A stretch of 64,000 nt of DNA from an uncultured Actinomycetota bacterium (GTDB taxonomy: Bacteria; Actinomycetota; Actinomycetes; Mycobacteriales; CADCTP01). A model generated the notes under the pieces. The model worked only from the letters and a program-made list of their open reading frames with translations, made no database searches and was not told where the DNA came from. A program made the position numbers and the translations under genes. This document shows, in pieces, positions 52,898-61,312 of the stretch; the stretch's first letter is position 1; each line of letters begins with the position of its first letter. The stretch spans positions 7,962,499 to 8,026,498 of the forward strand of contig OY970235.1 of the NCBI GenBank assembly GCA_963714145.1. The letters run 5' to 3'.

Positions 52898-55800
52898 ATG
52901 GGCAACGAGCGCGAGCACGTGCCGAGCGAGCAGCAGCACCGGGCCAGCGCCCCCGCTCAGGCCGAAGAGCACGCCGAGCCGGCGGTAGCCGAAGCAGCCG
53001 GCAACCGGGCGGTCACCCAACTGCTGCGGGACGCCGGCGTGGTGCCGCCAGCCCCGCCGGGCGGCCCCGGCGGCGGTTCGTCGGGTGCGTCGTCGACGCC
53101 GAACGCGCCGCCGAGTCAGGGTGCCGGGCCGCTCGACCCGGCCACCGGCGCCGCGATCGACAGCGCGCGCGGTGGTGGCTGGACGCTGCCGGACGCGCTG
53201 CGCGCCGAGATCGAGCACCACCTGGGCGTCGACCTGCGGCCGGTGCGCCTGCACACCGGCGCACAGGCGGCCGCGCTGACCGACGCGGTGCAGGCCGAGG
53301 CGTTCACCACGGGCAGCGACATCTTCTTCGGCGCCGGCCGGTACGACCCGGTCGGCCGCGGCGGCCGCGAGCTGCTGGCGCACGAGCTGACCCACGTCGC
53401 TCAGCAGGCCACCGGCGGCATCGGCATCCAGCACCAGGACGCCGAGGTCAGCCACCCCGACGACGCGGCCGAAGTCGAGGCCCGCGGGATGGCCAGCCGC
53501 ATCGCCAGCGCCCTCGAAGCGCCGCGCGCCACCGACCCGGACGCGCTGATACGGCCGGACGACGCCGGCCCGGCGCCGGACCCGGATGCGTTGATGCGGC
53601 CGGACGGTTCGGGCCAGGCGTCCGACCCGGACGGGCTGATATCGCCGGCAGCGGGCACCCCCGACCCGGATGCGCTGATGCCGCTGGATGACCGGGACGG
53701 GCTGATGCCGCTGGCTGGCCCGGGCCCGGCGGCCCGGCGCGGGCCGGCGGGGCCGGGCGCTCCGGCCGCGGCCAGGGACGCGCTGATGCGGCCGGGCGCG
53801 CCGGGGCCGGCGCCGGACCCCGATGCGTTGATGCAGCCCGACGACGAGGCCGCCGACCCGGACGCGCTGATGTCGCCGGAGGCGGCCGGGCCGGATCCGG
53901 ACGCGCTGATGCCGCCCGACGACCCGGCATCGGAGCCCGATCCGGACGGGCTGATGCGACCGGACGGACCGACCGCCGATAGTCCACAAGGGACGGTCGC
54001 GGTCCGGCCGAGCCAGGCCGACCCGATGCCGGTGGAGGAAGACCCGATGCCGGTGGAGGAACCGGCATCCGCTGGCGCCGGCGGCAGCTTCCTCGACAGC
54101 GTCAACGATCTGATCGCGACGGCAGGCGCCATGCTGGCCGGCGCCTTCGCCGGCCTGGGCGGGCCCGCTGCCGCGCCGGCCGGCCCCGCCTCCGGTATGG
54201 CTGCAGCCGCCGGTGCGCCGGCTGCCGCCGGTTCGCCCGCCTCCGCCGGTGTGGCGACCGGTGCGGCCGGCCCCGCCGGGTCGGGCCAGTCCGGGGCCGC
54301 CGGCGCCCCGGACGCGATCTCCGGTGCGTCGCCGGCCGGGCCTGTCCCGGACGCGATCTCGGGTGCCGGGCCGGCCGTGCCCGCCCCGGACGCGACTTCC
54401 GGCGCGTCACCCGCCGGGCCTGTCCCGGACGCGATTTCGGGTGCGGGGCCGGTCGTGCCTGTTCCGGACGCGATTTCGGGTGCCGGGCCGGTCGTGCCCG
54501 CCCCGGACGCGATCTCCGGCGCGTCACCCGCCGTCCCGGCGCCGGCCGGGTCGGGCCCGGACGCGATCAGCGGCGCCGGCGGGCGGCAGCCGGCCGGGCA
54601 GCAGGTGCGGAACCGGGCCGATGTGGAGCGCGTGCTCACCCCCCGGCCGGTCTCCGTGCCACCGCCGTCACCGCATGTCGCCGACCCGGGCGTGGCTGGC
54701 TGGAAGCAGCGCACCCGGCTGCGGATCGCCGGCATCCGCCCAGCCGACACCAGGAAGATCACCGCGGCGCCGGCGCAGCTGCAGGGCAAGGCCAAGGACG
54801 TGCAGGCGAAGAACGCCGAGGCGGCGGCGCCGGATCTGGCCGCGGACAACCAGAAGGTCGTGCCGAAGCAACCGGTGCCGGAGCAGCCGCTGCCGCCGCC
54901 CCCGCCGGACCCGGTGCCGGCCGCGACCGAGCTGATGACGACCGCGGCGAAGCTGCGGCTGCCGGATCAGGCGATGCCGCAGCTCGGCGCCAGCCCGCAG
55001 GTCGTCGACGCGACCTACCAGGTCAAGGTCGACGGCCTGCGGCCCGGCGAGATGCCGCCGCCGCCCCCGGCCGAGCCGGCCGCGCTGCCGGCCGGCGCGC
55101 CGGCCCTGGGCCCGGACGAGTCGGGCAAGAAGATGGCGCAGGCCAAGGACAGCGCGACCGCGCCGAAGCCGGAACCGACGGGCACCGCCGCACCGGCCGC
55201 GCCGGTCACGCTGACCGACGCCGGCCCGACCCCGCCGCTGTCGGTGGCGCCGGGCGTGCAGGCCGACCTGACCGCGGCGCTGGCCAAGCTCGCGGTCGGG
55301 GTGCCGCAGTCGGCGACCCGGATCGTGCACGCCGGCCTGGCCCAGGCGATGCCGCGCGAGATCATGCTCCAGGTCGCGCCGCAGCTCGGCGCCAAGGAGC
55401 AGCCGGCGCTCGAACAGGAGATGGCCGCCGAGCTGGCCGGCATCGCGACCGAGGCCGGCGTCGCCGCGACCACGCTGGACGCGAGCGTTGCCGACCTGCG
55501 GGCCCGGGCCGCCGCCGAGACCGCCGACGCCCAGCAGCAGCTGGCCGCCGAGGATGCCACCCACCGGTCCGCCATCGGGCAGCAGGCGCAGGCGCAGCAG
55601 GCGCAGGTCGCCGGGGTGAGCGCGGCGACGCAGCAGCAGATCGACGAGGCGGTGCAGGCCGGCAGCGGGCAGGCCGACCCCGCGCACGTCGACGGGCAGG
55701 CGAAGCAGCTGCTGCAGAAGGTGCACACCGACGCCGAAACGGTCCGGGCGAACCTGCGGCTGGCGTTCGAGCAGCGCCAGCGCGACCTGGACAAGTGGAT

Positions 55801-61312: not shown

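Follow-up and report, generated by a model that had tools for sequence, protein, structure and literature searches.

The stretch of DNA analysed here, a 64-kb segment of contig OY970235.1 from an uncultured Actinomycetota bacterium (referred to throughout as the window), contains an 8.4-kb gene for a giant protein headed by a DUF4157 domain, preceded by a small gene whose product has 142 aa (Table 1). The pair probably represents a giant polymorphic effector of a contractile injection system (CIS) and its small partner gene, located outside any CIS cluster. The two genes form a two-gene effector module, since the partner is homologous to a small gene of the closest CIS clusters. Assignment of the giant protein as a CIS effector is well supported by the gene neighbourhoods of its relatives across the family, and the protein belongs to an already described class, the kind of system being unchanged. 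The original prediction, which was made from the sequence and placed the protein among polymorphic toxins and cargos of extracellular CIS (eCIS), is upheld in this respect, with DUF4157 and Ntox4 domains scoring above the Pfam cut-offs and all seven of the relatives on readable contigs embedded in CIS clusters.

The giant gene is a single uninterrupted open reading frame (ORF) on the forward strand (52880..61312), with a guanine-plus-cytosine (GC) content of 0.94 at third codon positions in a window of 74% GC, and its first ATG would give a protein of 2,810 aa. Judged from the sequence, the real start is almost certainly the ATG at 52898, because GAGGGAGG precedes it at the right spacing and because the ATG at 52880 is ACG in L004, a soil-metagenome contig that carries an orthologue 97.6% identical to the window gene. 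From this start to the stop codon at 61312 the product has 2,804 aa, the same as the database protein P0001, and both the uninterrupted frame and the start at 52898 had been correctly predicted; residue numbers of the giant nevertheless count from 52880 in what follows. Comparison with the L004 orthologue gives a ratio of non-synonymous to synonymous substitution rates (dN/dS) of 0.25 (55 synonymous and 39 non-synonymous differences). By segment, the ratio is 0.0 in the metzincin-like domain and 0.08 in the hydrophobic block, which are the most constrained (the latter being the lowest among the segments that vary), and 0.18 in the head. The gene is also kept in three further metagenome strains at 95–98% identity, and these differ from the window giant mainly by insertions or deletions of whole repeats. 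Relative to the window, P0044 is shorter by 26 aa in the PDAISGA array and by one 39-aa unit, and P0043 and P0044 have in common insertions of 8, 18 and 4 aa (after aa 270, 447 and 569) in the N-terminal low-complexity region. Repeat copy number varies between near-identical strains at 54308–54577 and 58967–59479. Purifying selection and conservation across strains together indicate that the gene is maintained. A scan for promoters and terminators in DNA of 74% GC gave nothing informative.

Table 1. Coordinates of the partner gene, the giant gene and the segments of its product in the window; aa numbers count from 52880.
Feature	Position	Strand	Basis
Small partner gene, 142 aa, begins MQLQYQAGNEY	52311..52739	+	Third-position GC 0.88; homologues in CIS clusters
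Giant effector ORF, 2,804 aa plus stop	52898..61312	+	ORF; start comparison with L004; dN/dS 0.25
Low-complexity N-terminal region with GNRAVTQLL (aa 41–49), candidate CIS loading signal	52898..53179	+	Composition, motif
DUF4157/eCIS_core (PVC-metallopeptidase) domain	53186..53416	+	Pfam PF13699, aa 103–179
DPDALM-type short-motif array, 8 strict copies	53534..53959 (aa 219–360)	+	Tandem-repeat analysis, motif counts
Short hydrophobic helix within disordered region	54092..54169 (aa 405–430)	+	Hydropathy peak at aa 407–432
PDAISGA array, 7 copies, 13-aa period, copy number strain-variable	54308..54577	+	Repeat analysis
Conserved family core: helical region, annexin repeats, hydrophobic block	54677..58759 (aa ~600–1960)	+	Family alignment
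Gln/Ala-rich helical region with conserved Trp motifs (SWW...W...WE)	55397..56419	+	Invariant columns of alignment A2
Annexin repeats, partly degenerate	56465..58039	+	Pfam PF00191, PDB annexins
Hydrophobic block: strong helical hairpin (aa 1795–1840) and 2–3 weaker Ala/Gly-rich helices	58262..58759 (aa 1795–1960)	+	Hydropathy
Five repeats RGHADQIGGxRVRANEASGxIGNDTVL, periods 39, 39, 33 and 31 aa	58967..59479	+	Repeat analysis
Metzincin-like zinc peptidase domain (predicted)	59492..60139	+	Alignment A1, HMMER family, AlphaFold2 and Foldseek
Ala/Gly/Pro linker, scaffold/cassette recombination junction	60140..60211	+	Homology break points
Exchangeable C-terminal cassette: helical pre-toxin region, then Ntox4 (60914–61168)	60212..61309 (aa 2445–2810)	+	Pfam, relatives

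The evidence that carries the assignment comes from the loci of related proteins. Seven relatives of the giant lie on readable contigs, all of them in CIS clusters, and six of the seven directly follow a gene for a Pvc15-like AAA ATPase. The closest full-length homologues in the protein database, P0002 and P0003, are 37% identical to the window protein and have the same head and the same Ntox4 tail. These two and P0012 of Yinghuangia seranimata, which combines DUF4157, annexin and PT-HINT, are encoded in clusters with the order GerE regulator, Pvc16_N, Pvc15-like AAA ATPase, giant, sheath, tube and spike/PAAR/gp25. P0006, P0007 and P0018 have the common core or the tail only, without DUF4157, and each is encoded directly after the AAA ATPase: P0006 is found at the end of the baseplate operon, P0007 is immediately preceded by a separate DUF4157 gene for 233 aa, and P0018, which ends in Ntox4, is immediately followed by one for 229 aa. 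Across the family, DUF4157 is thus either fused to the effector or encoded in an adjoining small gene.

Additional clusters show the same stretch with other contents. L090, a contig found through the search with the partner gene and originating from the same soil sample as L004, has the order 566-aa cargo, small DUF4157 gene, 2,703-aa giant, partner, sheath and tube; its giant is 41% identical to that of the window from aa 1 to about 1970 and has DUF4157 and intact annexin loops. In L088, a Mycobacteriales metagenome-assembled genome, the slot holds the 566-aa cargo, a 219-aa DUF4157 protein (55% identical to the window head) and the partner, and in L001 and L002 the sheath gene directly follows the toxin. 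A DUF4157 ORF is found near 36 of the 80 related sheath loci in genomes, and most such ORFs are small. Because the occupants differ (giants, split DUF4157 genes, the 566-aa cargo), the stretch from the AAA ATPase to the sheath reads, from gene order, as a variable effector slot of which the giant family is one occupant. The 566-aa cargo-like protein (L088, 1136–2836; L090, 1–1158) has no Pfam match on record and so is without DUF4157; its N-terminal motif, AQAAGNKAVTAVV, resembles AEAAGNRAVTQLL of the window giant, and this likeness suggests that cargos of this CIS lineage have an N-terminal signal in common. A role of the giant as the CIS tape measure was also considered and was rejected, as a separate Pro/Ala-rich protein of 650–930 aa holds that position. 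The proteins in the tape-measure position (L002, 20704–23016; L003, 21490–24288; L086, 1245–3206 on the minus strand; L087, 2229–4196 on the minus strand) are of low complexity and share the C-terminal consensus ELDELARxLFGRIRRxLRxDLLLERERRG.

The partner gene ties the window to these clusters, and it had not been mentioned in the original prediction. It ends 158 nt upstream of the giant and its product is identical in L004. Homologues are 44–52% identical (E 1e-26 to 1e-35) to the window protein in L001, L002 and L088 and 46% identical in L090; they are present only in these closest CIS clusters and absent from all other fetched loci. In L001 and L002 the AAA ATPase separates the partner from the giant, which is not the case here, where only the 158-nt gap lies between them. 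The partner protein has no Pfam or PDB match and is a candidate adaptor or chaperone of the effector module. A function as the immunity protein for Ntox4 is unlikely, because the partner is found with cargos that lack Ntox4 (in L088 and L090) and is missing beside the Ntox4-tailed P0018; it also lies upstream of the giant.

At its N-terminus the giant protein combines a low-complexity region with the DUF4157 head. The first 100 aa consist to 57% of Pro, Gly, Ala and Ser, and a GNxA...LL motif in this region is common to P0002, P0003, P0020, P0036 and the 566-aa cargo of L088, with a chance expectation of about 0.04 per window. By analogy with the loading signals described in bioRxiv 10.64898/2026.05.27.728243, the region is a candidate CIS loading signal. 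The head was recovered by the PF13699 profile with an E-value of 2e-27 and 95.6 bits (cut-off 22), in agreement with the block ending in HELTHVAQQ that had been recognized in the sequence. This motif begins at aa 168 (nt 53381) and is followed by DDAAEVEA, so that the HExxHxxQ signature with its conserved Glu (Zhang 2012, PMC3482391) is present. The head is 55–76% identical to DUF4157 proteins encoded beside sheath genes in CIS clusters. Many giant DUF4157 proteins (P0013–P0037) have two HExxHxxQ domains, one N-terminal and the other 800–2,500 residues further on.

The CIS-embedded giant of L090 has an array similar to the DPDALM-type array (PDGLL/PDDLM) in the corresponding position, and none was found in P0002 or P0003. 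The short hydrophobic helix SFLDSVNDLIATAGAMLAGAFAGLGG is kept in P0002 and P0003 as GGLFAELGELFSAAGDAIMSGFAGLFG, though the repeats that flank it are not. The core is 24–41% identical over about 1,100–1,400 aa to P0002–P0010, P0012, P0016 and the L090 giant. In its Gln/Ala-rich helical region, a Pfam match to Apolipoprotein is weak and below the cut-off. The annexin family is matched by three stretches (E 3e-18, 66 bits, cut-off 25), and PDB annexins align to aa 1208–1402 (E 4.6e-10). A single GxGT loop is left in these repeats (GAGTKE, aa 1226), compared with four GxGTDE loops in P0004, P0005, P0007 and P0012. The hydrophobic block is conserved throughout the family, with G..AYG motifs in the core alignment. 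Of the RGHADQIGG units, three have 39 aa and two are shorter (33 and 31 aa), all sharing RGHADQIGGxR...GNDTVL, and P0002 has a related motif. The original prediction of arrays, helical region, annexin repeats, hydrophobic block, second HExxH domain and C-terminal module is borne out, each at about the place proposed; the five repeats said to be of 39 aa are indeed five in number, and their uniform length does not hold.

The second HExxH motif, HELAHQTGLIDEY, lies at aa 2344 in a predicted metzincin-like domain, with H2344, E2345, H2348, D2354, Y2356 and a conserved Met at 2378; the pattern HExGHxLGLxDEY and the invariant Met 24 residues past the Asp are kept across the family of this domain. 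The motif resembles the HExxHxxGxxDxY of snapalysin (M7), which is a lead to its possible affinity. The domain has no significant match in Pfam, NCBIfam or PDB sequences. A HMMER profile search of 1.84 billion representatives recovered 1,068 members at E<1e-3, and the family (P0047–P0193) includes up to eight copies in proteins of 5,000–7,800 aa as well as stand-alone proteins of 250–300 aa. An AlphaFold2 model of the domain has a core pLDDT (predicted local distance difference test) of 77–92, and its best PDB matches by Foldseek are a matrix metalloproteinase (MMP), karilysin, fragilysin and astacin, all of them weak (E 7e-3 to 0.1, TM-score about 0.3). For the model of the C-terminal cassette, a Foldseek search of the PDB gave no meaningful match (the model being of moderate quality, pLDDT 67).

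In proteins with a single copy, the metzincin-like domain sits about 230–390 aa from the C-terminus, and the tails that follow it vary: Ntox4 in the window, an SsdA deaminase in P0070, and WHH plus a colicin DNase in P0011. The junction can be placed by the points at which homology breaks, since homology with P0011 stops at aa 2412 and homology with P0004 and P0018 starts at aa 2445 and 2451, respectively. Ntox4 (PF15541) is matched at aa 2679–2763 with an E-value of 2.5e-13 and 50.7–54.1 bits (cut-off 25). The cassette is common to P0002 and P0003, and to P0004, P0018 and P0063 on other scaffolds; the same core carries a PT-HINT tail in P0012, and the giant of L090, the nearest homologue, has a different tail. 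The protein accordingly qualifies as a polymorphic toxin, because a constant scaffold is combined with C-terminal cassettes that are swapped among relatives. Residues that are invariant in alignment A4 of the tail are H2684, E2693, N2706, Q2710/N2711, E2715, R2719, R2738 and D2752. The cassette has no PDB sequence match, and no experimental paper on Ntox4 was found in the literature. Two enzymatic warheads, at least, had been proposed for the protein, and this part of the original prediction is not supported: the second HExxH domain precedes the exchangeable cassette, and DUF4157 is treated in the literature as a marker or processing domain. Because it lies directly before the exchangeable cassette, here and in relatives with other tails, the predicted metzincin-like domain would fit the role of a pre-toxin or processing module no less well than that of a warhead, although it may also act as a toxic protease.

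The module would work as follows. Members of the family sit in the variable slot for effectors next to the Pvc15-like AAA ATPase, with DUF4157 fused or neighbouring, as the gene neighbourhoods show. If the giant behaves like AlgoCIS cargo, Tme and Sle2, its disordered N-terminus and DUF4157 head would dock to the tube-initiator or spike end of the particle, and by a similar analogy the ATPase may help to thread the giant into the tube, with the 142-aa partner acting as adaptor or chaperone. After contraction of the sheath, the annexin repeats and the hydrophobic hairpin might bind to and insert into a membrane, whereupon the metzincin-like domain could cut the giant to free the tail, or serve as an accessory protease; Ntox4 would be the toxic end, for which Zhang 2012 predicted an RNase. 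Since the window copy is an orphan, the proposal is that a CIS encoded at another place in the genome would load the giant in trans.

Several observations weigh against this interpretation and have to be set beside it. No CIS component (sheath, tube, baseplate, spike, Pvc15/16) was found by Pfam scans of the coding-like ORFs in the window, as had been stated before, and no CIS gene lies within 10 kb of the L004 orthologue. No sheath on the source contig, which has 10,076,357 bp and carries P0001, appears in the best 80 of at least 596 GTDB genome loci, nor in the best 120 of 7,888 sheath protein matches. These sheath lists are a part of all matches, so they are no evidence that the source genome lacks a CIS. 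Tetranucleotide composition relates the window to L090, L088, L002 and L001 with similarities of 0.985–0.994 (the two halves of the window score 0.995 with each other); the organisms are therefore close, and L090 cannot be assigned to the source genome by this measure. Other points concern the protein itself. A PHROGs search gave no tape-measure match at E<=0.01, and an hhalign comparison of the annexin core with P0038, a protein of Tme-like architecture (DUF4157 plus Endonuclease_NS_2), gave a probability of 0.2%. As no homology of the body or with a tape measure was detected, what links the giant to Tme is the architecture and the head that they have in common. Most Ca2+-binding loops have disappeared from the annexin repeats, with one here compared with four in relatives; Ntox4 has no fold relative in the PDB and its toxic activity is a prediction, and cleavage by either peptidase domain is a proposal. 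Export by a type VII secretion system or by Sec was rejected, as the N-terminus matches no Pfam trafficking family but DUF4157.

Among the alternatives, the one that survives best keeps the same family and changes the target: a cytoplasmic CIS would fire into the membrane of the cell that produces it, bringing about regulated cell death or differentiation, an outcome reported for Tme and for the CIS of Streptomyces. We regard this as rather unlikely. Tme goes to the producer's own cell envelope and promotes release of extracellular DNA and sporulation (PMC11126660), none of the window, L004, L001 and L002 has an immunity gene after the toxin, and the hosts resemble actinomycetes in their 74% GC and in having relatives that are labelled as Mycobacteriales. 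However, the absence of immunity genes is accounted for equally well by distant, non-kin targets (Zhang 2012), and the annexin domains of eCIS loci have been interpreted as directed against eukaryotes (PMC8213781).

According to a second alternative, the orphan module is independent of any CIS: like large clostridial or MARTX toxins, it would be self-delivering, leaving the cell by lysis or another route of release, with its annexin-hydrophobic core serving as translocon and its metzincin-like domain as processing protease. The lack of CIS genes in the window and within 10 kb of the 97.6% identical orthologue would fit such a toxin, as would the lack of a source-contig sheath among the closest sheath relatives listed, the predicted membrane-binding, membrane-inserting and peptidase modules, and an orphan arrangement that is conserved and under purifying selection. 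Yet the head and the partner are specifically of the types found in CIS effector slots and both are conserved (dN/dS of the head, 0.18), the N-terminus offers no trafficking family apart from DUF4157, and the sheath lists comprise the top 80 and the top 120 of hundreds to thousands, which leaves room for a CIS. Independence from a CIS is thus judged highly improbable. We hold it to be very unlikely, too, that the orphan pair has become a free-standing delivery device which no longer needs the contractile particle and from which Ntox4 would be freed by autoprocessing; if true, actinobacteria would have, in a descendant of CIS cargo, a counterpart to the large self-translocating toxins. That the locus is a functionless, decaying remnant of a lost CIS cluster, as the replacement of the AAA ATPase of L001 and L002 by a 158-nt gap might suggest, can hardly be entertained in view of the intact 8.4-kb frame and catalytic motifs, the dN/dS of 0.25 with the peptidase and hydrophobic segments most constrained, and the same arrangement in independent strains that differ only by whole-repeat indels. 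A CIS effector with its partner, encoded apart from the particle, remains the preferred interpretation.

The surroundings of the module in the window are of other kinds. Its upstream neighbours are a nicotianamine-synthase-like gene, an amidase/amidohydrolase gene and a terpene synthase, and downstream lie a small ORF with a hydrophobic N-terminal segment, a trypsin-like protease and a CarboxypepD_reg protein; the L004 orthologue is flanked by the same neighbours. Farther away are genes for a lanthipeptide-dehydratase-like protein, an ABC transporter, a CHAT protein, a subtilase and a protein like non-ribosomal peptide synthetases. No immunity gene was found directly downstream of the toxin at the window locus, where one would be expected. 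The ORF at 61483–61998 has an Arg-rich start and a hydrophobic segment that resembles, by eye and with no predictor run, a signal peptide or transmembrane helix, and has no homologue at any related locus. On the minus strand, 47679–50648 is one 989-aa ORF with Amidase and Amidohydro_1 domains, and its counterpart in L004 is two genes of 546 and 411 aa, 87 nt apart; either a stop was lost in the window or one was gained in L004. At 8593–16923 on the plus strand, a 1,046-aa ORF with an N-terminal region like lanthipeptide dehydratases is followed by two ABC-transporter ORFs, and this may be a cluster for a ribosomally synthesized and post-translationally modified peptide. A CHAT plus TPR protein of 1,073 aa at 21914–29274 on the minus strand adjoins an S8 subtilase and a vWA-like protein, a combination of genes that resembles conflict or signalling modules.

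Giant effectors headed by DUF4157 are the least understood CIS cargo and are under consideration as swappable payload carriers in engineered protein delivery (PMC11126660; bioRxiv 10.64898/2026.05.27.728243). The locus adds three elements to this picture. The core of about 1,100 aa, in which a helical region is joined to annexin repeats and a hydrophobic hairpin, turns up repeatedly in the effector slots of CIS from actinomycetes and Chloroflexi and is distinct from the body of a protein with Tme-like architecture. A widespread metzincin-like domain, with no Pfam or NCBIfam match here, stands ahead of the exchangeable toxin cassette. Finally, the effector keeps its small partner even outside the cluster, which suggests that it has an adaptor of its own and is loaded in trans, much as in the orphan effector islands of type VI secretion.

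The order of modules had been described as unusually complex and as having no characterized counterpart; in fact, Zhang 2012, Kodavali 2014 and Tme provide precedents. The PVC-metallopeptidase head, now DUF4157, was defined by Zhang 2012 (PMC3482391) and shown there with variable toxin tails. The same study listed Ntox4 of Frankia and Nitrosococcus with this head and no immunity protein, predicted Ntox4 to be a metal-independent RNase, treated annexin as an accessory domain, listed the combination of PVC-metallopeptidase, annexin and toxin, and observed that immunity genes are often absent for toxins of the PVC type. The window giant resembles these toxins in its constant HExxHxxQ-E head, its variable C-terminal toxin, Ntox4, annexin and the lack of an adjoining immunity gene. 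It differs from them, in a comparison with computational descriptions that include a single annexin domain, by a helical-annexin-hydrophobic core of about 1,100 aa, a metzincin-like domain before the cassette and a partner gene, none of which is described there. DUF4157-annexin-toxin proteins were reported in Haliangium ochraceum by Kodavali 2014 (PMC3894181), and these fusions likewise unite DUF4157, annexin repeats and a C-terminal toxin in one protein; unlike the window protein, they belong to another phylum and have Ntox3 or Peptidase_M90 tails, and their CIS context was not analysed in that study.

Among eCIS, DUF4157 is a core marker according to Geller 2021 (PMC8213781), who described an arrangement of N-terminal DUF4157, long linker (exceeding 1,000 aa) and C-terminal toxin and found annexin among the eCIS-enriched domains. 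Danov 2024 (PMC11297309) reported that 88% of DUF4157 eCIS toxins lie within ten genes of an eCIS operon; the window copy departs from that majority, having no eCIS core genes within a ten-gene reach. In common with eCIS toxins and with the cargos Cgo1 and Cgo2 of AlgoCIS, the window protein has a disordered N-terminus, DUF4157, a long linker (sometimes more than 1,000 aa in those proteins) and a toxin, DUF4157 being placed within the cargo or adjoining it; unlike the cargos that have been tested, it is two to five times longer. For such cargos the disordered N-terminal domain was identified as the loading signal and DUF4157 was dispensable for loading (bioRxiv 10.64898/2026.05.27.728243). As cited in PMC11297309, Xu 2022 found the growth inhibition by Cgo1 to be independent of the metalloprotease motifs of DUF4157.

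The nearest parallel in size is Tme (BN159_7576) of Streptomyces davawensis, a tapemeasure-related CIS effector of 2,247 aa described by Nagakubo 2024 (PMC11126660), in which a DUF4157 head is combined with coiled coils, transmembrane (TM) helices and a nuclease at the C-terminus and which purifies together with the spike complex. The window giant is like Tme in its size, its head, its disordered and coiled-coil stretches, the hydrophobic helices in its C-terminal third and its exchangeable toxin; it is likewise a very long ORF with DUF4157, and its relatives are encoded inside CIS clusters. Unlike Tme, the window copy lies outside a CIS cluster, ends in Ntox4 in place of an EndA-like nuclease, and has annexin repeats and a metzincin-like domain. 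The body showed no homology in a comparison made with P0038, a protein of Tme-like architecture. Judged by composition, the giant also has no counterpart to the Arg-rich segment of Tme that resembles a cell-penetrating peptide (CPP), and in the clusters of its relatives the tape-measure position belongs to a separate Pro/Ala-rich protein. A divided layout is represented by the SLP system of Streptomyces lividans (bioRxiv 10.1101/2025.11.06.686954). There, the small DUF4157 protein Sle2 binds to the tube initiator and acts in trans with a coiled-coil, TM-hairpin cargo (Sle1), and both genes lie next to the sheath. The split arrangements of P0007, P0018 and cluster L088 are like that of Sle1 and Sle2 as described, whereas in the window protein DUF4157 is fused to the effector.

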